Assembly: GCA_964349395.1 (NCBI GenBank)
Contig: CAYGGA010000001.1
Location: 811 to 64,810 of the forward strand
Source of the DNA: an uncultured Gammaproteobacteria bacterium
Lineage (GTDB): Bacteria > Patescibacteriota > Microgenomatia > Woykebacterales > RBG-16-39-9b
Direction of reading: 5' to 3'
DNA length: 64,000 nt
The notes below the pieces were generated by a model, which was not told the origin of the DNA, ran no database searches, and saw only the letters and a program-made list of their open reading frames with translations. Made by a program: the position numbers and the translations under genes. Shown piece by piece: positions 3,439-37,299 of this stretch; the stretch's first letter is position 1; every line of letters begins with the position of its first letter.

Positions 3439-4707
3439 ATGCTGACTCCTCTAAAAAGGATCATTCCACGCCCGCTGACAAATAATTATCACCATCTTTT
3501 ATCCACCCTTGCTTCCACTTTGTACTCGCATCCGGAAAGACAACTTAAAATTATTGGGGTGACAGGGACAGATGGCAAAACCACCACGGTTAATTTGGTT
3601 TATCACCTTCTAAAAACCGCGGGTTTTAAAGTGGGTTTAATCTCCACGGTCAAAGCCGTAGTGGGGGAAAAAGAATACGATACTGGTTTTCATGTTACCA
3701 CCCCCAGCCCTTGGGAAGTGAAGAAATATTTAAAAAGAATGGTTGAATCAGGGACAGAGTGGGCAGTAGTGGAAGTAACTTCACATGCGCTGGATCAAAA
3801 TCGCGTATCTGGGATTAAATTTGAGTATGGCATTATCACTAACATTGCTCATGAACATCTTGATTATCACAAGTCATTTCAAAAGTACGTAATGGCAAAG
3901 GCCAAACTGATTAAAAGTGCTAAAGTAGCAATCTTAAACAAAGATGATTCTAATTTTGATTTCCTTAGCTACCAAGTTAAAGGAAGAGTTATTAGTTTTG
4001 GAATCAAAAAACAGGCTGATGTAACTGCTAGCAATATCTCTCTTGCTCCATTTGGGACGAGATTTAATCTGAACAAAGAGAAAACCACTGTCAGGACACC
4101 ACTGATTGGTGCCTTTAATGTCTCCAACTGTCTAGCTGCCATTGCGGTAGCCCAAGATATCGGGATTGAAAACTCAATTATCCTTAAAGGATTAAAAACT
4201 TTCCCACCTTTACAGGGCAGAATGCAGAGAATTGAGCAAGGTCAGAATTTTACTGTTATTGTCGATTTTGCTCACACTCCCCAAGCCCTGGAAGAAGCTC
4301 TAAAAACTCTCCGGCTGTTGACTCGTCATCATTTAATTGCCATTTTTGGTGCCGCTTCACAAAGGGACGTAGAAAAAAGACCCATGATGGGAAAAATCGC
4401 TATTCGGGGTGCTGATTTGGTAGTCTTAACTAGTGAAGATCCGCGTTATGAAGACCCAAACAAAATTATGACTGAAATTGCTTCGGGGATAGTGAAAAAT
4501 GGTGGGGTGCTAAACACCAATTTTTGGATGATTGGGGATAGGGGTAAGGCGATCAGTTTTGCCATTCAGAAATTAGCAAGAACCGGCGATGTCGTTGCTA
4601 TCTTTGGTAAAGGGCATGAAAAGAGCATGAATATCAGGGGCACAGAAATTCCTTGGAGTGACCAAGAAGTAGTAGTCAATAGTATCCGAGGTAGGAAAAC
4701 AATATGA
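3439..4707 (+). CDS. murE: UDP-N-acetylmuramoyl-L-alanyl-D-glutamate--diamino acid ligase (MurE)
   Basis: Mur ligase P-loop GVTGTDGKTTT and the DFAHTP motif. Follows ftsI. Confidence 0.75.
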   Translation: MLTPLKRIIPRPLTNNYHHLLSTLASTLYSHPERQLKIIGVTGTDGKTTTVNLVYHLLKTAGFKVGLISTVKAVVGEKEYDTGFHVTTPSPWEVKKYLKRMVESGTEWAVVEVTSHALDQNRVSGIKFEYGIITNIAHEHLDYHKSFQKYVMAKAKLIKSAKVAILNKDDSNFDFLSYQVKGRVISFGIKKQADVTASNISLAPFGTRFNLNKEKTTVRTPLIGAFNVSNCLAAIAVAQDIGIENSIILKGLKTFPPLQGRMQRIEQGQNFTVIVDFAHTPQALEEALKTLRLLTRHHLIAIFGAASQRDVEKRPMMGKIAIRGADLVVLTSEDPRYEDPNKIMTEIASGIVKNGGVLNTNFWMIGDRGKAISFAIQKLARTGDVVAIFGKGHEKSMNIRGTEIPWSDQEVVVNSIRGRKTI

Positions 4708-5978: not shown

Positions 5979-6876
5979 AGAAGAAAAGTTCGTTAATAAA
6001 TTAGGCCCGGGCAAAGTACTTTTGAATGAAAAGTTGGCCAAATATACTTATATGAAGGTTGGGGGCCCGGCCGATTTATTAGTATTAGCCAGTTCTTCAC
6101 ATGAACTTATTGAAGCTGTTAGTGTGGCTCAGAGTCTTGGAATTGGTGTGACGATTCTGGGCAACAGCGCCAACGTCTTGGTCGCAGACAAAGGGATAAG
6201 AGGACTCACTATTTTGAATAATTCCAAAAATTACAAATTTTTACCCCACGATTATCTCGAAGCAGATAGCGGGGTGAGTGTAGTGGAACTTATCAACCAA
6301 GCCAGCAAACGAAAATTGACCGGGTTTGAAAGAATGATGAAAGTACCGGCGACTGTGGGTGGGGCGATTTTTATGAATGCTGGGGACACAAATAAAGGCG
6401 AGTTTTTTGGTGATTTAGTGCGCAGTGTCCGCGTCTTAACCCCTCTGGGGCAAATAAAGAATATCCCACAAGAAGATTGCGGTTTTAGCTATCGCACTAG
6501 CCGTTTTCAAACTAGTGGAGAGGTGATTCTAAGCGCCGTTCTGCAGCTTAGGAGCGTCGCCAAAGAAGACATTGAGGAAAAAGTTCGCGATATACTGGTG
6601 CGCAAGGTCAACCAACCCGCAGGCCCTTCAGTTGGGTCAACCTTTAGAAATCCAGAAGGACACTTTGCGGGAGAACTTTTGGAGAAGGCTGGGGTAAAAG
6701 GAATTGTCTTGGGTGGGGCTAAAGTGAGCGAGAAACACGCAAACTTTATTCTAAATCTTGGGAATGCCAGCGCCAGTAATATACGTGACCTAATTATGTT
6801 AATGAAAAGAAAAGTTAAAGAAACTAGCCGCGTTGAGTTGGAAGAGGAAGTTCGCTATGTGGGAGAGTGGGACTAG
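5971..6876 (+). CDS. murB: UDP-N-acetylenolpyruvoylglucosamine reductase (MurB)
   Basis: FAD-binding type MurB N-terminus (YTYMKVGGPADLL) and a C-terminal MurB domain. Confidence 0.85.
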   Translation: MTKEEKFVNKLGPGKVLLNEKLAKYTYMKVGGPADLLVLASSSHELIEAVSVAQSLGIGVTILGNSANVLVADKGIRGLTILNNSKNYKFLPHDYLEADSGVSVVELINQASKRKLTGFERMMKVPATVGGAIFMNAGDTNKGEFFGDLVRSVRVLTPLGQIKNIPQEDCGFSYRTSRFQTSGEVILSAVLQLRSVAKEDIEEKVRDILVRKVNQPAGPSVGSTFRNPEGHFAGELLEKAGVKGIVLGGAKVSEKHANFILNLGNASASNIRDLIMLMKRKVKETSRVELEEEVRYVGEWD

Positions 6877-8186
6877 TGAGTCGGCTTAAAATTCAAGGAG
6901 GGCACCCACTTAGGGGGGAAATATCTGTTTTAGGAGCCAAAAATGTTGGTTTTAAACTGATGATTGCGGCTCTTTTAGGTAGTGGAACTTCTGTAATCCA
7001 TAATGTTCCTCAAGTAGCTGATGTTTATTTAGTCAGAGATATTATTGAAGCTTTGGGTGGTGAGGTAACTATCGCGGGGCATACTGTCACGATCAATCCA
7101 ACCGGCATAAAGCACAACTCAATTCCAATGAGACTTGGGGAAAAAGCCAGAGCGAGTAGTATGTTGATTCCGATTTTACTACATTATTTTGGTGAGGGCG
7201 TCGTCCCCTATCCTGGAGGAGACAAAATTGGTAGGCGACCTATTGACCGACACTTAAAAGGTCTCGAAAGATTGGGGGCGGTTTTTCAGCTAGAAGACCA
7301 TCAATTGCGTGCCAAAGGCAAACTCCATGGCAGCACTTTTAAATTCAATAAAATCACTCACACTGGGACTGAAACTTTGATTTTGGGAGCAGTAGTAGCA
7401 ACTGGAGAAACTTTTCTGGAAAACTGTGCTTTAGAACCAGAAGTAGATGATTTAATTCATTTCTTGAGCAAGATGGGGGCAAAAATTGAGAGACAGGGAG
7501 GGGTGATTCATGTTTATGGGGCAGTTGAACTCTACGGTGCGGAATACACGGTTATGCCAGATCGAAATGAAGTAGTGACCTTTGCTTGTATGGCCCTGGC
7601 TACTCGTGGGGATGTGACCATCCAACATATAAACAATGATCACATCGAAGCTTTTTTGGACCGCTTGGATAAAATTGGTGCCTCTTACGATCAGTCTGCG
7701 GATAGTTTGCGAGTTTACTGGGAGAGGCCCCTTTCGGCAACGACAGTCATTACCCGCCCTCATCCTGGCTTTATGACTGATTGGCAACCAATCTGGACAG
7801 CGCTGATGACTCAAGCTGAGGGTCAGAGTGTCATTCATGAGACAGTATTTGAGCATCGGTTCCACTATGTTCCTCTGCTAAATAGTCTTGGAGCTAGAAT
7901 TGAAATTTTTAACCACAGCGTCCCAAATCCAGAAGAATTCTATAATTTCAACTTGTCTGATGACAAAGAGGAATATTTTCATGCGGCTCGTGTTTTTGGA
8001 CCTACCAAATTCAAAGGTGGGGAGGTTTCAGTCCCGGATATTCGTGCTGGTGCTACTTTGACCTTAGCCGCATTGGCGGCTGAGGCAGGTACCATTTTGA
8101 CAGATATTGATCATATTGAAAGAGGGTATGAGAAGCTTGAAGATAGACTAAAAGGTTTAGGAGCTAATATTACCAAGGATGAATAA
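6867..8186 (+). CDS. murA: UDP-N-acetylglucosamine 1-carboxyvinyltransferase (MurA)
   Basis: EPSP-synthase-like fold; N-terminus LKIQGGHPLRGEISVLGAKN typical of MurA. GTG start overlapping the murB stop. Confidence 0.85.
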   Translation: MGLVSRLKIQGGHPLRGEISVLGAKNVGFKLMIAALLGSGTSVIHNVPQVADVYLVRDIIEALGGEVTIAGHTVTINPTGIKHNSIPMRLGEKARASSMLIPILLHYFGEGVVPYPGGDKIGRRPIDRHLKGLERLGAVFQLEDHQLRAKGKLHGSTFKFNKITHTGTETLILGAVVATGETFLENCALEPEVDDLIHFLSKMGAKIERQGGVIHVYGAVELYGAEYTVMPDRNEVVTFACMALATRGDVTIQHINNDHIEAFLDRLDKIGASYDQSADSLRVYWERPLSATTVITRPHPGFMTDWQPIWTALMTQAEGQSVIHETVFEHRFHYVPLLNSLGARIEIFNHSVPNPEEFYNFNLSDDKEEYFHAARVFGPTKFKGGEVSVPDIRAGATLTLAALAAEAGTILTDIDHIERGYEKLEDRLKGLGANITKDE

Positions 8187-9453
8187 TCTTAAGAGATCCT
8201 TGTATTTTCCAGTAGCCTTTTATTTCCGGTTCTTTGCGATGATAATGATGTGGCGCTGGAAGCCCAGAATCATTGTAGTCACTGGGTCAAGTGGTAAGAC
8301 AACGCTTCTGAATCTGATTGCCTCTCAACTGGGTAATGATGCTAAGTATTCCCACCACGCCAATAGCAATTTTGGTATCCCATTCAATATTTTGGGGTTA
8401 GACAGAAAAACTATGCTCCTTTCGGAGTGGCCCCGTCTTTTTCTAAGAGCACCGCTGCACGCTTTTAAAAAACCTCCACAGGAAAAATTGTACATTGTAG
8501 AAGCAGATTGTGATCGTCCAGGTGAAGATAAATTTATTAGCAGTTTAAGTAGTTTTTTGAAACCAGAGGTGACTCTGTGGGTGAGCACTGGTCGGACTCA
8601 TACCATGAATTTCGATCACCTAGTCAGAGAGGGAAAATTCCCGACAGTAGAAGAAGCAATTGCCTATGAATTTGGGCATTTTGTCAAACGTACGACTAAA
8701 CTTGTGATTGTAAATGGTGACTCAGAACTTATTAGAACTCAGTTAAGAAATACCAAGGCTTCCGTAATCCCGATTTATGCAAAAGATCTGACAAGTTACC
8801 AAGTAAGTGAAAATGGTACCCAGTTTAAGTTTGGTAATCGGATTGTGAAATTGAAAGCTTTACTACCGCCAAGTGCTTACTACTCCATTAGAATGACTTT
8901 GGAGCTTTTAAACTACTTAGGAATAGAGGCAAGAAGTTTTGAGAATTTTGCGTCACCCCCGGGTCGAAGTTCGGTTTTCGATGGGATTAAAAATACCACT
9001 TTGATTGATAGTAGTTATAATGCCAATCTTGGATCGATGACTACTATTTTGGAAATGTATACCCTATTTCCCAAAAAACCAAAATGGGCAGTGATCGGTG
9101 ATATGCTGGAGTTAGGAGCAGAAGAGGAAATCGAGCATGAAAAGTTGGCCAAATTAATAGCTGCGGTCGATTTAGAACGCTTAGTTTTAATGGGAACAAG
9201 AGTTGGTCAGTACACATATCCGGTGCTAAAAGAGCTAGTGGGGGACAAATTTCCAATTGTAGCTTTTGACAACCCAACCCAGACTTTAGCCTATCTTAAG
9301 CAAGAAATAAAAGGTGGGGAAACCATTTTGTTTAAAGGAGCCAGATTTTTGGAAGGGGTTATTGAAAATTTATTGAAAGATGCGAGTGAGAAAAAAGATT
9401 TAGCGAGGCGTGAGGAAATTTGGGAGAAAAGGCGTAAACAATGGGGACTGTAA
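8179..9453 (+). CDS. murF: UDP-N-acetylmuramoyl-tripeptide--D-alanyl-D-alanine ligase (MurF, lacking an N-terminal domain)
   Basis: P-loop VVTGSSGKTT; MurF-type IDSSYNAN and GDMLELG motifs. Confidence 0.75.
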   Translation: MNNLKRSLYFPVAFYFRFFAMIMMWRWKPRIIVVTGSSGKTTLLNLIASQLGNDAKYSHHANSNFGIPFNILGLDRKTMLLSEWPRLFLRAPLHAFKKPPQEKLYIVEADCDRPGEDKFISSLSSFLKPEVTLWVSTGRTHTMNFDHLVREGKFPTVEEAIAYEFGHFVKRTTKLVIVNGDSELIRTQLRNTKASVIPIYAKDLTSYQVSENGTQFKFGNRIVKLKALLPPSAYYSIRMTLELLNYLGIEARSFENFASPPGRSSVFDGIKNTTLIDSSYNANLGSMTTILEMYTLFPKKPKWAVIGDMLELGAEEEIEHEKLAKLIAAVDLERLVLMGTRVGQYTYPVLKELVGDKFPIVAFDNPTQTLAYLKQEIKGGETILFKGARFLEGVIENLLKDASEKKDLARREEIWEKRRKQWGL

Positions 9454-10136
9454 ATAAGATTTACTTGCTGCATGGTTGGTCAGACTCCACCCAAAAGTGG
9501 GGGACCTTAGTTAATTTACTAGAAAAAAGAGGGTTTAAAGTGCACTTGCCCAGAATTCCAGGATTAACTGAACCGTTAAAAGAAGAGTGGAAGCTAGAGG
9601 ACTATGTCAGTTGGTTAAAAAACCTCTTAGAAAATGAGAATAAAGTAATTTTAGTGGGACACTCCAATGGGGGAAGAATTAGCTTAGCCTTCAGTTTAAA
9701 ATATCCAGAAAAAGTAGAGCATCTAGTTTTGATTGATAGTGCTGGAGTCTATCATAATCATCGGGGTTTGCGTTTCAAGAGATTTTTGTTTAAAACCTTA
9801 GCTTTTGCTGGGAAAAAAATCACTAGATCAGAAAGATTGAGAAATGTACTTTACAAATTAGCTCGGGAAAAAGATTATCAACAAGCTGATCCAATTTTGA
9901 GAAAAACACTTACCAATTTGATTAAAATTGACTTAGTTCCACACCTTACCAACCTGAAGGTGGCAACTTTAATTATTTGGGGAGAAAATGATAAAGCCAC
10001 TCCATTGCAAGATGGACTTTTGATGCACCAAAAAATAACCAATTCAGTCCTTAAAATTATCCCGGAAGCTAGGCACTCACCCCAATTTACTCATCCAGAT
10101 ACAGTGGCAAAGCTAATTGCGGAAGGAGTAAAATAG
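9441..10136 (+). CDS. Alpha/beta-fold hydrolase
   Basis: GHSNGG nucleophile elbow (GxSxG); size and pattern of the alpha/beta hydrolase family. Embedded in the dcw cluster. Confidence 0.65.
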   Translation: MGTVNKIYLLHGWSDSTQKWGTLVNLLEKRGFKVHLPRIPGLTEPLKEEWKLEDYVSWLKNLLENENKVILVGHSNGGRISLAFSLKYPEKVEHLVLIDSAGVYHNHRGLRFKRFLFKTLAFAGKKITRSERLRNVLYKLAREKDYQQADPILRKTLTNLIKIDLVPHLTNLKVATLIIWGENDKATPLQDGLLMHQKITNSVLKIIPEARHSPQFTHPDTVAKLIAEGVK

Positions 10137-11338
10137 TGGCAGTTTTTAATTCACTTGGGTCAAACTACACTTTCATCTTTGCCTTAAAAGCTCTTTTTGG
10201 ATTGGGTAAAAAAGAAGATCTAGAAATTCTAAAAAAACTATTGGGTGAAAAATATGGTGGTGAAGTAGTCTTAACTTATAAGGGTCGAGAGGGTTTAAAT
10301 TTAGCGTTGCAAACATGCAATCTTAAAGAAAGTAGCCAAGTTGGGATAAATGGGTTTACCTGCTACGTAGTAGAAAAGGCTGTTTCTGATTTAAGCTTAC
10401 AACTAGCCTATATTGATATTGACTCCAAGACCTTAAACTTCACGGCCGAAGGGTTGAGAAAGGAAGTAGACAGAAATCCCAATCTAAAGGTAGTGGTGAT
10501 CCAAAACACACTAGGGTACCCAAGTGAAGGGGAGGAGATTGCCAAGATTTGCCGTGAGAAAAACTTGGTTTTGATTGAGGATTTAGCTCATTGTGTTGGG
10601 ACTACCTATAAAAATGGCCACGAAGCTGGAACTTTAGGAGATCTAGTTATCCTTTCTTTTAGTCAGGACAAGATGGTGGACGGAGGTAGTGGTGGGGCAG
10701 TAGTTATCCGTAACCAAAACTTTAGTTTCCCTCAGAATCTCGACTGGAAAGAAGTAGGGTATTACCAGCAATTACTAGACAGACTTTATCCAATTCTTAC
10801 CTTTATTATCAGAAAAACTTATCCCTGGAAAATTGGCGAGGTTTTGCACTGGTTACTTAAAAAATCAGCAATTTTGACTTCCCCCATTAACCCAAAATCA
10901 CCGATCGTATTACACAGTCTCCCTTCTTGGTGCGCTTCTTTAGTGATTGAGGCATCGAAAAATTTGCCCGCAAATGCAAAACATAGGCAAAAAATCGCTC
11001 AAATTTACAGCCAGACTTTGGATAAAGAGTTGGTTTTTGAAGATCTTACCCCACTTGTGGAAAACAGCACTAATCTACGTTTTCCAATCAATGTCAAAAA
11101 CCGTCTTGACCTCATTCTCTTTTTAAAAAATGCAGGAATATATGTGTCTGATATCTGGTATGATAGCCCGATTGGGCCAAAGAAATACCAAGATTTCAGT
11201 ATTTATCCTGTAGGCACTTGTCCCCAAGCGGAGAGTGTTTCACAGACAATCCTAAACTTGCCTACGCATCAAGATATAACCGAAAATGAGGCAAGAAAAA
11301 TTAGTGGGTTAGTAAACCAATGGTTAAAACAGAACTAA
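10136..11338 (+). CDS. DegT/DnrJ/EryC1/StrS-family PLP-dependent aminotransferase
   Basis: Aminotransferase class V-like fold; SFSQDK motif (PLP lysine) after DLAHCVG. GTG start overlapping the upstream stop. Confidence 0.6.
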   Translation: MAVFNSLGSNYTFIFALKALFGLGKKEDLEILKKLLGEKYGGEVVLTYKGREGLNLALQTCNLKESSQVGINGFTCYVVEKAVSDLSLQLAYIDIDSKTLNFTAEGLRKEVDRNPNLKVVVIQNTLGYPSEGEEIAKICREKNLVLIEDLAHCVGTTYKNGHEAGTLGDLVILSFSQDKMVDGGSGGAVVIRNQNFSFPQNLDWKEVGYYQQLLDRLYPILTFIIRKTYPWKIGEVLHWLLKKSAILTSPINPKSPIVLHSLPSWCASLVIEASKNLPANAKHRQKIAQIYSQTLDKELVFEDLTPLVENSTNLRFPINVKNRLDLILFLKNAGIYVSDIWYDSPIGPKKYQDFSIYPVGTCPQAESVSQTILNLPTHQDITENEARKISGLVNQWLKQN

Positions 11339-12345
11339 AACCAGTAACTAGGAAAAAAGAGTGGGAAGATTTTCTCAAGACCCGCAGCGAAGCGAACTTT
11401 TTGCATTCCTGGAATTGGGGAGAATTTCATCTTCTTTTGGGCCACTCTGTTTATCGAGTAGGTTTTTACCAAGACGAAAAATTAGTTGGTGTCTTGCTGG
11501 CTACAATGGAGACTGCACGCCGCGGTCGGTATCTAACTGTGCCAGGTGGGCCGATTATTGATTTTAAAGACAGAGGTCAAGTCAATTTATTTGCGAGCGA
11601 AATTAAAAGGCTGGCTAAAGCGGAAGGGTGTAGTTTTGTCAGGGTCAGATCCCAACTAATACAATCGGAAGACACACAAAAACTTTTTGCAAATTTAGGT
11701 TTCAGAAAAGCACCGATGCATCTACATGCCGAGCTCACCAACCAACTTGATATCACCAAGAGCGAGGAAGAACTTTTAATGGGGATGCGTAAAACTACTC
11801 GTTATGAAATAAAAAAAGCTCTGAATGAGAATATTAAAATCACCACTAGTTCAAGTAGTGATGAGATAAAGAATTTTTACACCTTGCAGCTAGATACAGC
11901 GCGGAGGCAAAAATTTGTACCCTTCTCCTTTAATTATTTGAAGGAACAATTTGAAGTTTTCTCTCAAGATAATCAGGTACTATTATATAAGGCAGAAAAA
12001 GACGGTATTCTTTTGGCCAATGCTTTTATTATCTTTTACGGACAGGAAGCAGTTTATCATTATGGAGCTTCTACCCCTGAAGGAAGGAATTTCCCCGGTG
12101 CTCATCTAATTCAATGGGAGGCTATCAGGGAAGCTAAGAGACGAGGACTGAAAAGATACAATTTCTGGGGAGTAGCTCCAGAAGACGTGCAAAACCATCG
12201 GTTCGCAGGTCTGTCTATTTTCAAAAAGGGGTTTGGAGGAGAGGACTTTCAGTATTTACCAGCCCAGGATTTAGTAATCAACTCGCCTTTGTATTTAGTT
12301 AATTTTGTGATTGAGACACTGAGGCGGCATCTTCGCCACGTCTAG
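11320..12345 (+). CDS. FemAB-family peptidoglycan aminoacyl (peptide-bridge) transferase
   Basis: FLHSWNWGEF motif and GNAT-like duplicated fold typical of the FemX/FemAB (lipid II aminoacyltransferase) family. Confidence 0.75.
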   Translation: MVKTELKPVTRKKEWEDFLKTRSEANFLHSWNWGEFHLLLGHSVYRVGFYQDEKLVGVLLATMETARRGRYLTVPGGPIIDFKDRGQVNLFASEIKRLAKAEGCSFVRVRSQLIQSEDTQKLFANLGFRKAPMHLHAELTNQLDITKSEEELLMGMRKTTRYEIKKALNENIKITTSSSSDEIKNFYTLQLDTARRQKFVPFSFNYLKEQFEVFSQDNQVLLYKAEKDGILLANAFIIFYGQEAVYHYGASTPEGRNFPGAHLIQWEAIREAKRRGLKRYNFWGVAPEDVQNHRFAGLSIFKKGFGGEDFQYLPAQDLVINSPLYLVNFVIETLRRHLRHV

Positions 12346-12405
12346 GGCTAGGCTCTGCGAACCGCTCCTTTGCGACTAGGAGGGTCTAGTTGTATACTTA
12401 TTATT

Positions 12406-13419
12406 ATGAGTAAGCTCCTTGGCATCCTGCTTTTGTCTTTTCTGACGACTAGTATTTTGGCGGTGCCCTTCATTAACCTTCTTTATAAGTTGAAATTCCA
12501 AAGGCAAAAAGAACTGGGCCAAAAAAATATCTTTGGGGAAGTTACTAGTATTGTGAATAAACTGCATTCCTGGAAAGTTGGGACCCCAAATGCCGGTGGT
12601 ATTCTGATAATCTTAGTCTCCATTGCCTTTAGTGCTATTTTTTATGCCCTAACAAAGTTTGAGATAAATTGGACGGCAAAAATTTTGTACTTTACTATGT
12701 TTAGTTTTGGTCTTTTGGGTCTTTATGATGACGCTAGAAAATTCTTTGGACTTAAAGTTACAGGAGTCTGGGGATTGCGGATTCGCTACAAGTTTAGTCT
12801 GCAATGGCTTTTGGCATTAGTGATTGGGCTAGCCCTAAATATCCAAATGGGTTTACATACCGTAGCTCTGCCCCTGGGTGGAGAAATTGATTTAGGCGCT
12901 TTTTATCCTTTGTTTGCTGCCTTGGTGATTGTCGCGACCGTGAATGCGGTAAACCTAACTGACGGACTAGATGGTTTGGCCAATGGTCTACTTTTGATTG
13001 CCTTATCTGCTTTTTGGTGGTTGTCTTCTCTCGCCGATATGGGTGATATTCAAGTTTTTATCGCTGTTATTCTAGGATCGCTTTTAGCTTTTCATTACTT
13101 TAATATCTATCCGGCTCGCGTTTGGATGGGTGATACCGGAGCCTTGGCTTTAGGGGGCATGCTTGCCGTTATCAGCTTGATGTTAAATTTAGTTTATGTC
13201 TTACCTTTTATTGGGGCGGTTTTTATGATCGAAACTATCTCCACGCTGATTCAATGGACCTCAAAAGCAACCAGAGGGGAAAAAGTTTTCCTAGCTACAC
13301 CCATACACCATCATTTTGAGGCTAAGGGATGGGATGAAACCAAAGTAACCATGAGGTTTTGGTTAGCCGGAGCGGTGTCTGCTTTTGTGGGTCTTTTCAT
13401 CGCTTTGCTTGGGAAATAG
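12406..13419 (+). CDS. mraY: Phospho-N-acetylmuramoyl-pentapeptide transferase (MraY)
   Basis: NLTDGLDGLA and D-D motifs; multi-TM. ATG at 12406 gives an N-terminus aligning with Bacillus-type MraY; the ORF track starts earlier at a TTG (12370). Confidence 0.85.
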   Translation: MSKLLGILLLSFLTTSILAVPFINLLYKLKFQRQKELGQKNIFGEVTSIVNKLHSWKVGTPNAGGILIILVSIAFSAIFYALTKFEINWTAKILYFTMFSFGLLGLYDDARKFFGLKVTGVWGLRIRYKFSLQWLLALVIGLALNIQMGLHTVALPLGGEIDLGAFYPLFAALVIVATVNAVNLTDGLDGLANGLLLIALSAFWWLSSLADMGDIQVFIAVILGSLLAFHYFNIYPARVWMGDTGALALGGMLAVISLMLNLVYVLPFIGAVFMIETISTLIQWTSKATRGEKVFLATPIHHHFEAKGWDETKVTMRFWLAGAVSAFVGLFIALLGK

Positions 13420-14788
13420 CTTCAACTCAGGTATAATAGTGGCTATGAAGCAACCAGTCAGATTCTGTTTTGAGGGTTATAAACTTCAAACTTCAACCAA
13501 TCAAATTAGTTTTCACTACTCAGTCTATTTTTCTGATAACACGCAGACTCTTTTTACTGAGAAATTAACTTTCCCAGAAAATGCTAGTTGGGACAAAATT
13601 CCAAATAATATACTAAAGTCCTCCTTAGAAAGCTTGCATTTGATTTTGGGGATTAGTTATTGGAAAGCTTATTGTCCTAAAGAATTAATACTAAAAAATT
13701 TAGTTTTAAATAAAAAACAAGCTGAGTTTTGGAATACTGTATATACCAAAGGGCTAGGGGAATTTTTCTACCGCAACAGTATTGATTTTCGTGGGTTAGT
13801 TCAGTTTCCACATGCACAGGTTGAAAACAAAGCTGGTTCCTTTTCTCGTCAAAACCGTAGTTTATTACCATTTGGAGGTGGTAAAGATTCAATTGTCGCT
13901 TTAGAGCTACTTAAAAAAGCTGGCAAAGACTTTACTCTCTTTACACTTGGGACCTCACCAGTCCAAGAGGAAGTAAGCCAAAAGATTGGTCAAAAACCAC
14001 TGGTAGTGCAACGAGAACTAGACTCACAACTTTTTGACCTAAATTCGAAGGGTGAGGTCTACAATGGCCATGTCCCTATATCAGCTGTGTATCATTTAGT
14101 AGGATCAGTAGTTGCTTTACTTTTTGACTATAAATACATTGTCTTCCCCAATGAGCTTAGCGCTAGTTATGGAAATGTAAACTATTTAGGAGTTGAGATT
14201 AATCACCAATGGAGTAAATCTTTTGAATTTGAAAAGCTGGTTCAAGATTATATTCACCAGTTTATCACACCTGATATCATGCCTTTTTCTCTGCTGCGAC
14301 CACTTCATGAGATAAAAATTGTGGAACTTTTTAGCCATATGAGTGAGTATTTTTCAACCTTTTCAAGTTGTAACCGTAATTTTACTCAGACCAAAGGTAT
14401 AAGTCAGAAAAGATGGTGCGGGGAGTGTCCGAAGTGTGCTTTTGTTTTTCTGCTTTTGGCTGCCTTTCTACCTAAAGAAAAAGTGCTGAGCATTTTCTCC
14501 AAAAATCTTCTCAGTGATCCAAAATTAACACTGGCTTACAAAGAACTTTTAGGACTAAAAGACGTTAAACCCTGGGATTGTGTGGGCACTCCAGAAGAAG
14601 TGCAGTTAGCTTTTTACCTCGCTCATCAAAAGGGAGAGTTTGAGAAAGACACGGTGATGAAGATGTTTGTTGATGAGGTTTTACCTACTCTTGAAAACCC
14701 AGAAAAGCTGAAAGAAAAACTGTTAATTGTCACTCACGAGGGGTCTGTCCCAGAAGAGTTTAAGATTGTTATTGAGGAGCTAAAATGA
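13385..14788 (+). CDS. PP-loop (adenine-nucleotide alpha-hydrolase) superfamily ATPase of unknown function with a C-terminal CxxCxxC
   Basis: PFGGGKDSIVALE matches the SGGxDS PP-loop; C-terminal CGECPKCAF. Alternative ATG start at 13445. Inserted between mraY and murD, with an ATGA overlap to murD. Confidence 0.4.
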   Translation: MWVFSSLCLGNSFNSGIIVAMKQPVRFCFEGYKLQTSTNQISFHYSVYFSDNTQTLFTEKLTFPENASWDKIPNNILKSSLESLHLILGISYWKAYCPKELILKNLVLNKKQAEFWNTVYTKGLGEFFYRNSIDFRGLVQFPHAQVENKAGSFSRQNRSLLPFGGGKDSIVALELLKKAGKDFTLFTLGTSPVQEEVSQKIGQKPLVVQRELDSQLFDLNSKGEVYNGHVPISAVYHLVGSVVALLFDYKYIVFPNELSASYGNVNYLGVEINHQWSKSFEFEKLVQDYIHQFITPDIMPFSLLRPLHEIKIVELFSHMSEYFSTFSSCNRNFTQTKGISQKRWCGECPKCAFVFLLLAAFLPKEKVLSIFSKNLLSDPKLTLAYKELLGLKDVKPWDCVGTPEEVQLAFYLAHQKGEFEKDTVMKMFVDEVLPTLENPEKLKEKLLIVTHEGSVPEEFKIVIEELK

Positions 14789-15993
14789 CTCTTGAAAAAC
14801 TAAAGGGTAAAAAAATCTTGGTAGTCGGTTTGGGAAGTGAGGGCAAGGCAACTTTTGACTATCTAAAAACAAATTTACCCAATACAGTGGTCGAAACTAC
14901 CGATCAAAAAGATGGGCCAAACTATTTGGACAAACAAAAGGAATTTGACTTGGCGGTTCGTTCTCCGGGGGTCAAGAGGGAGCTACTTACGATTCCATCC
15001 ACCACCGCTACTAATATCTTTTTTGCCAATGTAACCTCTCCTATTATTGGAGTTACGGGGTCCAAAGGAAAAAGCACGACCGCCTCTTTAATTGATCATC
15101 TCCTAAAAACGAGCGGTAAAAAATCTATTCTAGCAGGCAATATTGGCCTCCCGATGTTGGAAGTCGTCGAAAGTGAAACGGACTTTTTTGTCGTGGAGTT
15201 ATCTAGTTTTCAGCTGGAAGATATCAATTACTCACCACACCTCAGTGTTTTCACTAGTATTTTTCCTGAGCATATGGATCATCATGGTAGTTTTGAAACT
15301 TACTTTGACGCGAAGAAAAGAATAGTAAAGTTTAGCACCAGTGAAGATTATTTCGTCTTCAACTCCCGTTATAGGGAATTGGTTAGTTTAAGTAGAGAAA
15401 CCAAAGCACAAGCAGTCCCTTTTGAAGAAACCTTGCCTCCTGGGGTTGAGAAAATACCCCTTATTGGTCAGCATAATTTAGAAAATCTGCTCGGTGCCAT
15501 CACTGTCTCCCATTTACTAAAAATCGAAGATAAGTTTATCAAGAGTGGGATTGAGACTTTTAAACCTTTACCCCACCGATTAGAAAAAGTTGGCACTTTT
15601 CGGGGAATCACATTTTACGATGATGCTATTTCCACCACTCCTCAGTCCGCAATTGCTGCCTTGGATTCTTTGGCGGATGTCAGTACGATTTTGCTAGGCG
15701 GGGAGGATCGCGGTTATGATTTTAGGGCGTTGATAAGCAAATTAGTGGAAAAGAAAGTTGCTAATATTGTGCTTTTCCCCAATAGTGGCAGCAAAATCAA
15801 AAGTTTACTACCCAAAAGCCAGTTTAAAATTTTGGAAACAAGCAGTATGGAGGAGGCAGTGAGATTTGGGTATACCAATTCTCATGTAGGGTCAGTTTGT
15901 CTTCTGTCTACAGCTTCTCCAAGCTACAGTCTGTGGAAGAATTTTGAAGAAAAAGGGGACTTATTTCAAGATAGTATAAAAAAGTTTGCCTAA
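14785..15993 (+). CDS. murD: UDP-N-acetylmuramoylalanine--glutamate ligase (MurD-type)
   Basis: N-terminal Rossmann KKILVVGLGSEGKA; P-loop GVTGSKGKSTT. Short (402 aa). MurD versus MurD2 cannot be distinguished by eye. Confidence 0.8.
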   Translation: MTLEKLKGKKILVVGLGSEGKATFDYLKTNLPNTVVETTDQKDGPNYLDKQKEFDLAVRSPGVKRELLTIPSTTATNIFFANVTSPIIGVTGSKGKSTTASLIDHLLKTSGKKSILAGNIGLPMLEVVESETDFFVVELSSFQLEDINYSPHLSVFTSIFPEHMDHHGSFETYFDAKKRIVKFSTSEDYFVFNSRYRELVSLSRETKAQAVPFEETLPPGVEKIPLIGQHNLENLLGAITVSHLLKIEDKFIKSGIETFKPLPHRLEKVGTFRGITFYDDAISTTPQSAIAALDSLADVSTILLGGEDRGYDFRALISKLVEKKVANIVLFPNSGSKIKSLLPKSQFKILETSSMEEAVRFGYTNSHVGSVCLLSTASPSYSLWKNFEEKGDLFQDSIKKFA

Positions 15994-16007
15994 AATCCCT
16001 ACCTGCC

Positions 16008-17129
16008 ATGAAAACAAAACATCGAAAAATTCCTAATTTCTCTTTTACTTCTTTTAGGTCCATGGACTTGGGTTTAGTTTTAGTCACCCTGGGACTAACT
16101 ATCTTTGGATTGGTGATGGTTTACAACGCCAGTGCTTTTTCTGCTTTTAAAGATTTTAACGATAAATATTACTTTTTAAAGCACCAAGGAGTTGGGGCCT
16201 TAGTAGGATTATTTGCTCTGCTAGTTACCTCTCGTGTTAATTATCACTTTTGGGAAAAACTGGCTTTTCCTGCGATGCTGATCTCCCTGGTTCTACTGGT
16301 GAGTGTTTTTAGTCCTTTAGGTGTAAAGGTTTATGGTGCGCAGCGGTGGGTGGACTTTGGTTTTTTCACTTTGCAGCCAGCCGAGATAGCCAAGCTAAGT
16401 TATATTTTGTATCTATCTGCTTGGCTCTCCAAAAAAGTTAAGGCGCTTCCTTTCCTAGCGATCACGGGAGTAATTTTGGGTATTGTCCTGCTGCAGAGAG
16501 ATTTGGGAACGGCGACTATCATCGGTCTGACGGGAATGAGTATTTTTTTCATTGCCGGGGCACCTTGGTGGCAATTTTTAGGACTTGGTTTTTTAGGAGC
16601 TGTGGCGGGGTCAATTTTGATCTTAACTTCCAACTATCGCAAAGCCAGGCTGTTGAGTTTTCTAAATAGTTCTAATGATCAACTGGGGACGAGCTACCAT
16701 ATCAATCAAGTCTTAATTGCTTTGGGGAGTGGTGGGCTTTTTGGGGTGGGGTTGGGGCAATCTCGGCAAAAATATGGTTATATACCTGAGGTTACCACTG
16801 ATTCTATTTTTGCAGTGGTAGCCAATGAGCTGGGTTTTATTGGTGCTAGTGGTTTAATTTTGGCTTTGGCATACCTAATCTGGCGGGGGATACAGACAGC
16901 CAAGGGAGCAGGCGACCAGTTTGGTTTCTTGCTAGCAGTGGGGATTACTAGCTGGCTTGGTTTTCAGGCCATTATCAATATTGGTTCCATGGTGGCTCTT
17001 TTCCCTCTCACTGGAGTGCCTTTGCCCTTGATTTCCTACGGGGGAAGCTCGTTGGTGATGGTGATGACTGGGATTGGGATCTTGCTGAACATCTCTAGCT
17101 GGCAAGTGGTAAACAAAACCGGCCGATAA
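16008..17129 (+). CDS. ftsW: SEDS-family peptidoglycan glycosyltransferase FtsW
   Basis: Roughly 10-TM FtsW/RodA-family pattern with conserved C-terminal PLPLISYGGSS. Position between murD and murG. Confidence 0.75.
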   Translation: MKTKHRKIPNFSFTSFRSMDLGLVLVTLGLTIFGLVMVYNASAFSAFKDFNDKYYFLKHQGVGALVGLFALLVTSRVNYHFWEKLAFPAMLISLVLLVSVFSPLGVKVYGAQRWVDFGFFTLQPAEIAKLSYILYLSAWLSKKVKALPFLAITGVILGIVLLQRDLGTATIIGLTGMSIFFIAGAPWWQFLGLGFLGAVAGSILILTSNYRKARLLSFLNSSNDQLGTSYHINQVLIALGSGGLFGVGLGQSRQKYGYIPEVTTDSIFAVVANELGFIGASGLILALAYLIWRGIQTAKGAGDQFGFLLAVGITSWLGFQAIINIGSMVALFPLTGVPLPLISYGGSSLVMVMTGIGILLNISSWQVVNKTGR

Positions 17130-17148
17130 TCATGATATACTACGGAGT

Positions 17149-18258
17149 ATGCGTGTTGTAATTACGGGTGGGCATTTAACCCCAGCGCTGGCAGTTATTG
17201 ACGAAATAGTCAAAGATCACCAAGTTATTTTTATTGGTCGCAGAACTGCTAGTGAGGGAGACAAATCCAAAAGTGCAGAAGCAATTGTTATTCCCCAGCT
17301 AAAAATTCCCTTTTTCTCCATTGAGGCGGGGAGATTGCAAAGAAAATTAACTCCTTACACTCTCTTTGCGCTACTAAAAATTCCCCTTGGTTTTTTCCAG
17401 GCTTTTTTGATTCTGATTAAAAATGATCCCGATGTCGTAATCTCTTTTGGTGGTTATGTGGCTTTACCAGTAGTGTTAGCTGCTTGGCTGCAGCGTATTC
17501 CTGTTATCACTCATGAGCAGACAACGGAAACTGGACTGGCAAATAAAATCATTGCCCGTTTTGCTCAAAAAGTCGCGGTTGCTTGGGAGACTTCCGCCGC
17601 TAATTTCCCTAAGAAAAAAGTAATCATCACTGGTAATCCTATCCGGGCGCAAGTTTTAAATATTAAGAGAGAAAAAGTAAGTAAGCCAGTTATATATATA
17701 ACTGGCGGCAACCAAGGGGCCCATGTTATCAATAACGCCGCCGAAGAGATAGTGGAAAATCTCGCTTCCCTAGGCGAAGTTTATCATCAAACTGGAGGAT
17801 CAGAAGTCTATCATGATTTTGAAAGACTTAGTGAGAAGCTTGCTACCTTACCAAAAGCAACTGCCGAAAATTATCATTTAGCCAAGTGGTATTCGACCGA
17901 GGAGTTGGCGGAGATTCTAGCGAAAGCAACTTTAGTGATTGGTCGAAGTGGCGCCAATACTATTACTGAACTAGCATATCTAGGGATTCCTGCTCTATTG
18001 ATTCCGATTCCTTGGGTCACCCATGATGAACAAACCAAAAACGCGCAGATTTTGTCTTCTCGGGGAGCGGGGCTTATCTTAGCTCAAAAAGAGTTAACTG
18101 GCAAAAGATTACTAAGTACCGTGGAAATTATGTTAAAAGATATAACTGCGTTTCAAAAAGGAGCCCAAGAAGTTAAAAAACTTATCAAAACTGATAGCGC
18201 TTCTAAACTCGCCCAAGAAGCTCTAAAACTTGCCCACCATGGAGAAAAAACTCTTTAG
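17149..18258 (+). CDS. murG: Undecaprenyldiphospho-muramoylpentapeptide beta-N-acetylglucosaminyltransferase (MurG)
   Basis: GT28 N-terminus ITGGHLTPALAV and C-terminal GRSGANTITE motif. Confidence 0.85.
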   Translation: MRVVITGGHLTPALAVIDEIVKDHQVIFIGRRTASEGDKSKSAEAIVIPQLKIPFFSIEAGRLQRKLTPYTLFALLKIPLGFFQAFLILIKNDPDVVISFGGYVALPVVLAAWLQRIPVITHEQTTETGLANKIIARFAQKVAVAWETSAANFPKKKVIITGNPIRAQVLNIKREKVSKPVIYITGGNQGAHVINNAAEEIVENLASLGEVYHQTGGSEVYHDFERLSEKLATLPKATAENYHLAKWYSTEELAEILAKATLVIGRSGANTITELAYLGIPALLIPIPWVTHDEQTKNAQILSSRGAGLILAQKELTGKRLLSTVEIMLKDITAFQKGAQEVKKLIKTDSASKLAQEALKLAHHGEKTL

Positions 18259-28272: not shown

Positions 28273-29402
28273 AAGGACTGAGCCTTAAGAAAATTGAAAC
28301 TGGAAGTGTAACCAATTCTAGCCCATTTGACTGGGTTGTTTTTTTATGTGTTGTGATATTGGTTGCCTTTGGAGTTCTAACCATTTATTCCACCTCCTTT
28401 TCAGAACAACAAATTAGCAGTGGTCTAGTCCAAAAACAGATTATTTTTGCACTGTTGGGACTCGGAGCATTTTTGTTCGTTTCTCGAATGGATTATAAGA
28501 TTTTTGCCCAAACAGCAGTGATTTTATACATTGTGACTCTAACTCTTTTGATTTTAACGATTGTCTGGGGAATTACCACTCGAGGGTCAACTAGGTGGAT
28601 TGACTTTGGGTGGATAAGAGTCCAGCCTAGTGAGATTCTTAAACCAGTTTTAATTGCCCTCTTAGCTTTTTACTACTCCACTAGGGAGAGGTTGCAGTTT
28701 CGACATTTTCTCGTTGGACTTATTTTGGCGGCTATCCCAGCGGTTTTAGTCTTTAGACAGCCGGATTTAGGGAGCGCGATCGTGATCATGGGGATATGGT
28801 TTATTATGACTTTAGTCTCTGGTTTTCCTTACCGCTACCTTTTGGGGCTCACAACAATTGGTGTTCTGGGACTTCCTTTTATCTTCAATTTACTAAAAGA
28901 CTACCAAAAAAGTAGATTAACAACTTTTCTAAATCCAAAACAAGATCCTTTAGGATCTGGGTACAATATTATTCAAGCCATTATTGCCGTTGGTAGTGGC
29001 CAGCTTTTAGGGCAAGGGTTTGGGAGAGGCACCCAGAGCCACTTGAATTTTCTACCAGAGCAGCACACTGATTTTATTTTTGCCACGATGGCGGAAGAGT
29101 TGGGGTTTGTGGGAGTTGTTTTAATGATTGGTGTTTTTCTAGTGCTGATTGTAAAAATGCTAGTGATTGCTAAAAACTCCTCTGATTTGTTTGGTATGCT
29201 ACTGGTGGTGGGGATAATTGGTATGATTACCTTACAACTTTTTATCAATGTTGGCATGAATGTGGGTATTTTGCCAGTTACAGGAATTACTTTGCCATTT
29301 ATCTCGTTCGGGGGCAGCTCGCTAGTGGCAATGATCGTCTCAGTAGGTGTGGTAGAAGCAGTGGCGCGGGCACGCAAACACTCAGTCATGGAAATTAAGT
29401 AG
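28269..29402 (+). CDS. rodA: SEDS-family protein (RodA-like second paralogue)
   Basis: FtsW/RodA-family multi-TM protein with C-terminal LPFISFGGSS. Second SEDS gene in the window. Confidence 0.7.
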   Translation: MKGLSLKKIETGSVTNSSPFDWVVFLCVVILVAFGVLTIYSTSFSEQQISSGLVQKQIIFALLGLGAFLFVSRMDYKIFAQTAVILYIVTLTLLILTIVWGITTRGSTRWIDFGWIRVQPSEILKPVLIALLAFYYSTRERLQFRHFLVGLILAAIPAVLVFRQPDLGSAIVIMGIWFIMTLVSGFPYRYLLGLTTIGVLGLPFIFNLLKDYQKSRLTTFLNPKQDPLGSGYNIIQAIIAVGSGQLLGQGFGRGTQSHLNFLPEQHTDFIFATMAEELGFVGVVLMIGVFLVLIVKMLVIAKNSSDLFGMLLVVGIIGMITLQLFINVGMNVGILPVTGITLPFISFGGSSLVAMIVSVGVVEAVARARKHSVMEIK

Positions 29403-37276: not shown

Positions 37277-37299
37277 ACAGCTCGTTTTAAAGTAGTAAA

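Follow-up and report, generated by a model that had tools for sequence, protein, structure and literature searches.

The window, i.e., the whole stretch of 64,000 nucleotides that was analysed, contains a dcw cluster in which the following genes are found:

6867 to 8186, + strand: murA, flanking the cassette upstream, identified by its translation and BLAST labelling
8179 to 9453, + strand: LIG, a predicted divergent MurF-family ATP-dependent ligase, identified by Pfam, TIGR01143, and PDB matches
9441 to 10136, + strand: ABH, a small α/β-hydrolase of 231 aa (Abhydrolase_1, E=1.3e-21)
10136 to 11338, + strand: DegT, a DegT-fold PLP-dependent enzyme of 400 aa with a GTG start (DegT_DnrJ_EryC1, PF01041, E=5.6e-35)
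11320 to 12345, + strand: Fem, a FemX-like, predicted aminoacyl-tRNA-dependent transferase of 341 aa without coiled-coil insert
12370 to 13419, + strand: mraY, flanking the cassette downstream (TIGR00445, 204 bits, above the cut-off of 192)
13385 to 14788, + strand: MurL-like epimerase, matched over its full length (NF041275, E=5.9e-119; 397 bits, below the cut-off of 700)
14785 to 15993, + strand: short MurD (TIGR01087, 277 bits)

LIG, ABH, DegT, and Fem form a four-gene cassette (8179-12345), in which neighbouring reading frames overlap by 13, 1, and 19 nt, respectively, and which is conserved in tiny, uncultured bacteria of the CPR. An earlier note on this DNA had described three genes in 9441-12345, and these are indeed intact, tightly overlapping, and matched by profiles far beyond chance. 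The families proposed there (α/β-hydrolase, DegT, and FemAB) hold in profile searches, and both motifs it quoted are present (LSFSQDK with K179, and FLHSWNWGEF). That note took the trio for an insertion between murF and mraY, a view that had to be revised because the supposed murF is the cassette ligase LIG; the trio constitutes the last three genes of the cassette, and LIG is the first. The catalytic motifs are intact in all four proteins. A literature search found no publication describing the LIG-ABH-DegT-Fem cassette.

Typically, murF is located between murE and mraY in the dcw cluster, and in the window as well as in eight other loci LIG stands directly upstream of mraY. It is not an ordinary murF product, as it reaches 130.5 bits with the murF profile TIGR01143 (cut-off 288.6), on which a canonical CPR MurF (from locus L001) scores 268.7 bits. 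In Pfam, Mur_ligase_C is matched with E=3.6e-12 and Mur_ligase_M weakly, and the PDB matches are MurF in every case. LIG retains the GSSGKTT P-loop as well as DSSYNAN and GDMLELG..E..H, motifs of the MurF type, as an alignment to E. coli MurF (1gg4) revealed, and these P-loop and C-terminal-domain motifs are conserved across 77 homologues. The protein shares 55% identity with the cassette ligases of L001 and L002, compared with about 24%, in the C-terminal domain only, with a canonical CPR MurF. It is a MurF-derived, highly divergent ligase. No canonical MurF was found near LIG in the window or in the eight other dcw-embedded copies.

ABH carries the nucleophile elbow of the α/β-hydrolases (PF00561; G-x-S-x-G, here GHSNG) together with the Asp and His of an intact catalytic triad, and 81 homologues share HGW, GHSNGG (Ser75), D184, and H212. 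Among solved structures, it comes closest to small carboxylesterases and lipase-like proteins. ABH obtained no NCBIfam equivalog assignment, the best match being BioH with 69 bits against a cut-off of 207.

The DegT protein scores 121.7 bits with PF01041 (cut-off 19.8). All of 23 homologues have the PLP-binding lysine (K179 in SFSQDK) and the cofactor-binding aspartate (D149 in EDLAH). In a Foldseek search with the AF2 model (pLDDT 91.3), the top 50 matches were all nucleotide-sugar aminotransferases, with TM scores of 0.65-0.73 and 15-21% identity (best match about 0.7 and about 19%). None of the characterized subfamilies compared (PseC, LegC, WecE, ArnB, and others) was reached, PseC coming closest with 82.6 bits against 423.5. 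More than 1100 full-length homologues share about 50% identity, and the protein carries family-specific invariant segments; it represents a cassette-specific subfamily of PF01041.

Fem matches the FemAB profile PF02388 with E=1.1e-43 and 150.1 bits (cut-off 24), and its AF2 model (pLDDT 86) shows the two GNAT-like lobes of the FemX enzymes, with Foldseek TM scores of 0.84 to Staphylococcus aureus FemX (6snr) and 0.80 to Weissella viridescens FemX (FemX_Wv). F301-K302 aligns with the catalytic Phe304-Lys305 of FemX_Wv and is invariant in 22 homologues. Since both the fold and the Phe-Lys pair are those of peptidoglycan Fem enzymes, Fem groups with these and not with generic, non-peptidoglycan GNAT enzymes, the grouping by which the earlier note's reading would have been refuted. 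It is the most conserved protein of the cassette, with 60-64% identity and a fixed length of 341 aa. From FemX_Wv and S. aureus FemX/FemA, to which it is only 17-20% identical, it differs in its strict linkage and occasional fusion to a DegT-fold PLP enzyme and in its occurrence in genomes with a MurE that looks DAP-type.

The distribution of the cassette was surveyed in 84 related loci, anchored on the DegT homologue and viewed over ±10 kb each. The complete LIG-ABH-DegT-Fem set is found in 76 of them in the same order, with mostly overlapping reading frames, and most of the incomplete cassettes are interrupted by contig ends. The DegT marker is present in 237 species genomes, essentially all of them Patescibacteria. 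The association with dcw genes, on which the earlier note had built and for which it had suggested a synteny comparison, applies to the window, but elsewhere it is the exception: only 17/84 copies adjoin dcw genes, and in the other 67 LIG and the trio lie together away from them, for example after dnaB, with the MurF-like ligase retained every time. The cassette moves between genomic sites as one unit. Two fusions of the Rosetta-stone type occur. DegT and Fem are joined in a single ORF of 718-803 aa in nine loci, with DegT N-terminal to Fem, and LIG is fused to ABH in proteins of 672, 686, and 765 aa (P0377, P0382, and P0385).

One lineage allows the cassette to be compared with what close relatives carry at the same place. 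In seven collinear dcw clusters (L086, L087, and L089-L093), the order is MurA-(MetK)-Ddl-(Alr or an ORF of 195-198 aa)-MurF-MraY, so that murA is followed by ddl, or by metK and then ddl, instead of LIG. The only cassette-bearing member of this lineage (L001/L085) shows MurA-LIG-ABH-DegT-Fem-MurF-MraY. Here, the cassette fills exactly the Ddl(+Alr) slot in otherwise collinear dcw clusters, an in-situ exchange seen in this single lineage, where one genome with the cassette is compared with seven that have Ddl. Probes of CPR-type Ddl and Alr gave no match in any cassette locus (±10 kb) or in the window, and conversely the cassette probes gave no match in 7/7 Ddl loci; over this DNA, the two gene sets exclude one another. 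Moreover, none of the best 120 CPR Ddl homologues lay on a contig equal in length to a cassette contig, the 1.08 and 1.15 Mb contigs of L001/L085 included, in what is an indirect comparison. Positional replacement alone is not proof because the unrelated metK also occupies the slot after murA in L087 and L090. Important to note is that L001/L085 still has its canonical MurF, intact and next to the cassette, so that LIG may have a function that MurF lacks, or the product may differ from plain D-Ala-D-Ala. That the cassette occupies the Ddl(+Alr) slot is not proof, but it is more in keeping with a role in making the end of the stem peptide than with a bridge or with decoration by an amino sugar.

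A racemase-dependent step is replaced in the window itself. No murI was found in its dcw cluster, and the MurL-like epimerase and the short MurD stand in for it, which corresponds to a known alternative D-Glu route that avoids free D-Glu. This replacement fits an organism that avoids pools of free D-amino acids.

Our preferred, though tentative, interpretation, to which we assign a little less than an even chance, is that the cassette replaces Alr, Ddl, and usually MurF by non-orthologous enzymes and builds and attaches positions 4 and 5 of the stem peptide. For its substrates, the order of its steps, and its product, we propose the following scheme. The PLP enzyme and the aminoacyl-tRNA-dependent transferase would together produce a terminal dipeptide, which the ligase/hydrolase pair would install. 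The DegT-fold enzyme would supply the D-configured centre, either by epimerizing an alanyl residue with a free α-amine (tRNA-bound or N-terminal in a dipeptide) or by transaminating pyruvate. The FemX-like enzyme would form the peptide bond using aminoacyl-tRNA as activated donor, in place of the ATP-grasp chemistry of Ddl. The α/β-hydrolase might release or proof-read an ester or peptide intermediate, and the MurF-derived ligase would finally couple the product to UDP-MurNAc-tripeptide at the expense of ATP. Since the amino acids carried by tRNA are L-configured and the groups acylated by Fem enzymes are amines, placing a D-residue at position 4 would require an epimerization, for which we know of no precedent in the DegT family.

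Like Alr, Ddl, and MurF, whose genes take its position in collinear dcw clusters, the cassette combines a PLP enzyme, a peptide-bond former, and a MurF-type ligase. However, the PLP enzyme has a DegT fold (type I) instead of the alanine-racemase fold, the bond former is a predicted tRNA-dependent Fem-fold transferase and not an ATP-grasp ligase, LIG lies far below the MurF family threshold, and an α/β-hydrolase is added. A similar principle is known from Xanthomonas, where the alternative D-Glu route through MurD2 and MurL has been biochemically demonstrated (PMC8788868, PMC5808125). There, as is proposed for the cassette, a divergent Mur ligase and an accessory enzyme supplant a racemase-dependent step, so that no free D-amino acid is necessary, and a MurL homologue sits in the same window as the cassette; the MurD2/MurL route concerns another stem-peptide position and other enzyme families. 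A logic analogous to the proposed one, without homology, is seen in VanH-VanA-VanX, which reprogram the stem-peptide terminus in vancomycin resistance: the first enzyme forms an unusual C-terminal block from a keto acid, the next couples it, and a hydrolase serves as editor, yielding D-Ala-D-Lac. Unlike the cassette, these are inducible resistance genes that use the host MurF. The DegT-Fem fusion has a precedent in DhpH of dehydrophos biosynthesis, in which a PLP domain is fused to a Fem-like domain. TRNA-dependent amide synthases of the Sba18/Sbb17/Orf11 type also have the Fem fold and acylate amines of small molecules, not of peptidoglycan precursors. In contrast to the cassette, all these enzymes belong to actinomycete secondary metabolism and have no MurF-like ligase, hydrolase partner, or dcw link.

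The earlier note's suggestion of a non-canonical stem, a bridge, or an amino-sugar modification stands as far as the link of the trio to peptidoglycan-precursor synthesis is concerned. Its bridge version, which we regard as unlikely but worth serious consideration, would make LIG simply the MurF of this clade: Fem would transfer an amino acid from aminoacyl-tRNA to the side-chain amine of residue 3 in UDP-MurNAc-pentapeptide, like FemX_Wv, DegT would modify the new α-amine by epimerization or transamination, and ABH would trim the product to a branched or modified stem. LIG is MurF-derived, and Fem, with 341 aa and no coiled coil, is similar in length and build to FemX_Wv, a UDP-MurNAc-pentapeptide:L-Ala transferase. 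The substrate of FemX_Wv is the soluble precursor linked to UDP, nucleotide-linked substrates are also bound by enzymes of the DegT family, and the DegT-Fem fusion would suit two successive steps on one UDP-MurNAc-peptide. Known FemX-type branching takes place on L-Lys, whereas MurE in the cassette genomes carries EDPR, in which the Arg of the DAP-type motif DNPR is retained. Furthermore, Fem has Phe at the position of Arg211 of FemX_Wv, in a part where the alignment is uncertain. Branching at residue 3 would also leave unexplained why the ligase is constantly linked to the trio and so divergent, and why ddl/alr are exchanged in collinear clusters and ddl is lacking near every cassette.

The amino-sugar version, in which DegT would aminate a nucleotide-linked keto-sugar and Fem would aminoacylate the resulting amine, so that the wall glycan or a different envelope polymer would contain an aminoacylated sugar, appears improbable. 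The best structural matches of DegT would agree with it, Fem-fold aminoacylators of amino sugars are known (Sba18/Sbb17 with streptothrisamine, TM 0.69), and among NCBIfam families Fem scores best with the PEP-CTERM FemAB family, which is exopolysaccharide-associated (62.6 bits, cut-off 260). However, no dehydratase or oxidoreductase that would form a keto-sugar was found within the cassette or next to it in the inspected loci, which include the 76 complete copies, DegT is distant from the sugar aminotransferases and has invariant segments of its own, and neither the MurF-derived ligase nor its fusion to the hydrolase would have a role. Least probable, and only slightly behind, is a salvage function comparable to Mpl and LdcA recycling: ABH would trim wall fragments imported by CPR cells that live on other bacteria, LIG would re-attach the peptide to a UDP-MurNAc intermediate, and DegT and Fem would repair the peptide. 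Salvage would suit the small genomes and limited metabolism of CPR bacteria, and also the ligase-hydrolase fusion and the location of most cassettes outside the dcw cluster. Against this, the motifs of LIG are of the MurF and not of the Mpl/MurC type, LIG stands in nine loci where murF would be in a dcw cluster that is otherwise complete, neither a transporter nor an amidase accompanies the cassette, and salvage does not predict the ddl/alr exchange.

Because the slot of the cassette holds the classical D-Ala-D-Ala genes in close relatives, the cassette may finish the cell-wall peptide in a way that has not been described. If this is true, the bacteria that carry it would complete their cell-wall peptide without alanine racemase, without D-Ala-D-Ala ligase, and mostly also without a canonical MurF.

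The dcw cluster of the window is co-directional from rsmH through ftsZ, and the genes relevant here are arranged as follows (window coordinates):

369-1244, rsmH, the first gene of the series, then ftsI
3439-4707, murE, after ftsI, then murC and murB
6867-8186, murA, directly before the Mur-ligase gene
8179-9453, divergent MurF-family ligase (LIG), between murA and the three genes that follow
9441-10136, α/β-hydrolase (ABH), 231 aa, family match with E=1.3e-21
10136-11338, DegT-fold PLP enzyme (DegT), 400 aa, DegT/DnrJ/EryC1 family with 121.7 bits, SFSQDK lysine present
11320-12345, FemX-like transferase (Fem), 341 aa, FemAB family with 150 bits, FLHSWNWGEF present
12370-13419, mraY
13385-14788, MurL-like gene, between mraY and murD
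14785-15993, murD, then ftsW, murG, ftsQ, ftsA, and ftsZ

The reading frames of LIG, ABH, DegT, and Fem overlap by 13, 1, and 19 nt, respectively. Together with the family matches and both motifs, this bears out the hydrolase, DegT, and FemAB genes that the earlier note had described as inserted between murF and mraY. Their placement as an insertion after murF, however, does not stand, as the upstream ligase is itself part of a four-gene unit, which is called the cassette here. Promoter and terminator scans of window 6500-16500 gave counts not above those of shuffled sequence and were uninformative on internal transcription units. Elsewhere in the window, a second FtsW/RodA-family gene (28269-29402) lies directly 3' of ileS and is followed by a polysaccharide cluster (32046-38535) with genes for a flippase, three glycosyltransferases, and, one after the other, two Wzy_C/O-antigen-ligase-like proteins.

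In profile searches, LIG scores 130.5 bits against the MurF model (cut-off 288.6), with a barely detectable central domain. It is 55% identical to the cassette ligases of L001 and L002, whereas its identity to the canonical MurF of L001 (a related locus that carries both a cassette and a canonical murF) is ~24% and covers the C-terminal domain only. By sequence, it matches only MurF proteins in the PDB, and the P-loop as well as the MurF-type DSSYNAN and GDMxELG motifs are retained; no second MurF was found in the 64 kb window. LIG is strictly linked to the cassette and strongly divergent, and in L001 it occurs together with an intact canonical MurF, which suggests either that ordinary MurF does not handle the product or that LIG works in a complex with ABH. 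The neighbours of P0420, a distant relative of LIG (32% identity) that stands as a lone Mur ligase, were uninformative.

The cassette is widespread. A search with DegT returned >1100 full-length homologues at ~50% identity, and the first loci viewed had the identical order of ligase, hydrolase, DegT, and Fem. Relatives of DegT occur in 237 genomes in a scan with one genome per species, and the conservation of the three genes with the ligase across species rules out a recent, unrelated insertion. The best 80 loci of that scan belong to the Patescibacteria or Candidate Phyla Radiation (CPR), mostly Microgenomates (Levy-, Davies-, Roizman-, Gottesman-, and Woesebacteria), while some records carry the labels Parcubacteria, Saccharimonadia, or Berkelbacteria. 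Many CPR-type cassette records are titled 'uncultured Gammaproteobacteria', 'Pseudomonadales', or 'Alphaproteobacteria' (L005, L008, L016, L026, L031, L066, and others); because their genes are CPR-like, these titles probably reflect taxonomic mislabelling by automated binning pipelines. The database names of the cassette members are generic ('perosamine synthetase', 'FemA/FemB family protein', 'hypothetical protein').

When ORFs were called in 84 loci and labelled by BLAST, the complete LIG-ABH-DegT-Fem order was present in 76, and seven of the eight incomplete loci lay at or near a contig end. The genuine exception is L064, where a DegT-like homologue (9917-11203, 43% identity) stands alone, flanked by unrelated ORFs (710 and 289 aa), with no LIG, ABH, or Fem. 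Neighbouring genes within the cassettes mostly overlap, the gaps having medians of -34, -4, and -19 nt. A dcw gene was found within 3 kb of only 17 of the 84 cassettes; the L001 copy sits inside the dcw cluster with a second, far more canonical MurF (268.7 bits), and the copies of L002-L004 adjoin dnaB, far from any mur gene. As the gene order is conserved despite this, the cassette is an operon in its own right, located in the dcw cluster in some genomes. Where it is embedded there (the window, L017, L042, L047, L048, L052, L053, L066, and L070), LIG occupies the usual place of murF before mraY, and no canonical MurF lies near any of these nine copies.

Fusions add to this picture. DegT and Fem form a single ORF of 718-803 aa in nine loci, and among 158 representatives that an exhaustive search with LIG gave at E≤1e-30, three are LIG-hydrolase fusions according to Pfam (672, 686, and 765 aa). 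By these fusions, DegT is physically coupled to Fem and LIG to ABH, so that the four proteins fall into two pairs.

The surroundings of Levybacteria-type cassettes show some local features. A Cof/HAD-type phosphatase lies 3' of the cassette (L002 10240-11815; L003/L004 12618-13951), preceded in L003/L004 by a Maf-like gene, and in three such loci a class-IV aminotransferase (D-amino-acid or branched-chain type) follows the phosphatase on the opposite strand. A tRNA-Leu in Levybacteria-type loci was considered as a hint to the amino acid used and was rejected as mere local synteny; the window has no dedicated tRNA gene beside the cassette, and across 42 loci no tRNA gene is linked to it consistently. 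On a Levyibacteriota contig (L014), ARAGORN called a tRNA-SeC (17483-17562, anticodon TCA), which may be miscalled or may read UGA.

All four cassette proteins look catalytically competent. ABH retains the HG and GHSNG motifs as well as the Asp and His, although it matches no particular subfamily model; the structures closest to it are small esterases. The DegT model (pLDDT 91) superposes on nucleotide-sugar aminotransferases with a TM of about 0.7 at only ~19% identity, and K179 and D149 are invariant, as are family-specific segments such as the N-terminal FNSLGSNY. Fem is the most conserved of the four (60-64% identity, constant length of 341 aa). Its model (pLDDT 86) best matches Staphylococcus aureus FemX (TM 0.84), FemA, and Weissella viridescens FemX (FemX_Wv, 0.80), a coiled-coil insert is lacking, and the catalytic F304-K305 of FemX_Wv aligns to F301-K302, which is invariant in Fem. 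Since both structure and catalytic motif match Fem enzymes, a generic GNAT assignment was rejected, and Fem stands apart from the non-peptidoglycan GNATs with which the earlier note had allowed that it might group. The Fem of L001 (9173-10192) is oddly divergent, with 39-43% identity to other cassette Fem proteins, which share about 60% with one another; the LIG, ABH, and DegT of L001 and L085 (loci of the same organism) are not unusually divergent, and this is the only genome found with a canonical MurF beside the cassette.

A direct exchange could be followed when the canonical MurF of L001 was searched against metagenome contigs, which returned L085 and the relatives L086 and L087, whose MurF proteins are 68% and 62% identical. 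The dcw clusters of L086 and L087 are collinear with that of L001, including a GlmU-MurC fusion, and differ only between murA and murF: this interval holds LIG-ABH-DegT-Fem in L001/L085, ddl and alr in L086, and metK and ddl in L087. Five further members of the lineage (L089, L090, L091, L092, and L093), inspected with the Ddl of L086 as query, all have the order murA-(metK)-ddl-(alr or a 195-198-aa ORF)-murF-mraY; L092 is labelled Curtissbacteria, and L089 comes from the same sample as L001. Probes made from genuine CPR Ddl and Alr gave no match in any cassette locus (±10 kb) or in the window, with all Ddl loci recovered as positive controls, and cassette probes matched none of the seven Ddl loci. 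In length, none of the contigs bearing the best 120 Ddl homologues equals a known cassette contig. The 1.08 and 1.15 Mb contigs of L001/L085 have no recorded Ddl, whereas the relatives' Ddl proteins (52-68% identity) are recorded. The comparison of Ddl contigs agrees, indirectly, with ddl having been lost from cassette genomes. The position after murA can also hold the unrelated metK between murA and ddl (L087 7794-8924, L090 8892-10004), so positional exchange alone is not proof, and the direct exchange was seen in one lineage only.

Two features of this lineage deserve separate mention. The fusion of an N-terminal GlmU uridylyltransferase to MurC (662-680 aa) lies in the dcw clusters of L001 (1785-3797), L086, L087, and L089-L093. 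The 195-198-aa ORF between ddl and murF (L090 10985-11581, L093 11052-11639) is conserved, has no Pfam match, and takes the place that alr holds in L086 and L089.

A side observation concerns the supply of D-Glu. The MurL-like gene encodes a full-length homologue of the UDP-MurNAc-L-Ala-L-Glu epimerase (E=5.9e-119, below the equivalog cut-off) and lies directly upstream of a short MurD (402 aa; the pair spans window 13385-15993), and no murI was found in the window cluster. MurD2/MurL is a known alternative route to D-Glu (PMC8788868, PMC5808125), and the window pair represents it in a CPR genome. The pair recurs in L066, whereas murI is present in most other cassette loci. As MurL and a short MurD stand in place of murI alongside the cassette, the window cluster looks built to avoid free D-amino acids.

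The best-supported proposal, at somewhat less than an even chance, is that the cassette has taken over from Alr, Ddl, and, in most genomes, MurF as a non-orthologous replacement and makes and attaches residues 4-5 of the stem peptide. Its enzyme classes plausibly map onto this synthesis: the DegT-fold PLP enzyme would stand in for the racemase, Fem as an aminoacyl-tRNA-dependent transferase would replace the ATP-grasp ligase, the MurF-derived LIG would perform the attachment, and ABH would free or edit an ester or peptide intermediate. Because of the two fusion pairs, an order from DegT to Fem and a mutual coupling of ABH and LIG are suggested. tRNA carries L-amino acids, and the D-residue at position 4 would therefore need inversion of a residue with a free α-amine, which could be on the tRNA or at the N-terminus of the dipeptide. 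Such a PLP-dependent inversion would be chemically reasonable, although to our knowledge α-carbon inversion is without precedent in the DegT family; we infer this step together with the amino-acid identities and the role of the hydrolase. The cassette may thus be likened to MurD2/MurL as an alternative branch of peptidoglycan-precursor synthesis. A fuller version, in which much of the CPR builds the D-Ala-D-Ala (or equivalent) precursor end from L-aminoacyl-tRNA, is doubtful. Here, DegT would invert the α-carbon of an alanyl ester or dipeptide N-terminus, the FemX-like enzyme would form the bond, the esterase would release or edit, and the MurF-derived ligase would install the product, which with MurD2/MurL would give a normal wall made with no free D-amino acid and neither alanine racemase nor D-Ala-D-Ala ligase, the targets of D-cycloserine.

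The earlier note had suggested a modified bridge or stem. In a branch model of this kind, UDP-MurNAc-pentapeptide would be the substrate of the FemX enzyme, and DegT would modify the amine so gained. This fits the FemX_Wv-like architecture of Fem and the DegT-Fem fusion, but it leaves the travelling, divergent ligase, the LIG-ABH fusion, and the ddl/alr exchange unexplained, and MurE in cassette genomes has EDPR, retaining the Arg of the DAP-type DNPR motif; we consider it unlikely. The note's other suggestion was an amino-sugar modification. A route where DegT would aminate a keto-sugar that Fem acylates has structural precedents in the sugar aminotransferases and in Sba18/Sbb17, which acylate an amino sugar, yet a keto-sugar-forming partner is missing from the inspected loci and the ligase is left without a role, which makes it improbable. 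More improbable still is muropeptide salvage, which is contradicted by the MurF-type motifs of LIG and its murF position.

The Alr-Ddl pathway to the D-Ala-D-Ala terminus is held to be near-universal in wall-bearing bacteria. The pathway is an antibiotic target, hit directly by D-cycloserine, and vancomycin and β-lactams act on its product. No description of the cassette was found in searches of the literature on CPR/Patescibacteria walls, FemX, ddl/murF, DegT with Mur ligases, or tRNA-dependent dipeptide synthesis, and the CPR was explicitly excluded from the dcw analysis of PMC8871954. Interest in the cassette is high because it is widespread and sharply defined and lends itself to direct tests by complementation and reconstitution. 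Should a branched stem be the right reading, the cassette and its two fusions would still define a conserved, testable wall-modification system. If the replacement of Alr and Ddl is true, a tRNA-dependent route would be widespread across a major radiation that is uncultured and would rank second, after MurD2/MurL, among the alternative routes in stem-peptide synthesis. It would carry Fem-family chemistry beyond side branches into the main chain, would add a new reaction type to the DegT fold, and would help to explain how metabolically minimal CPR cells supply their D-amino-acid residues.
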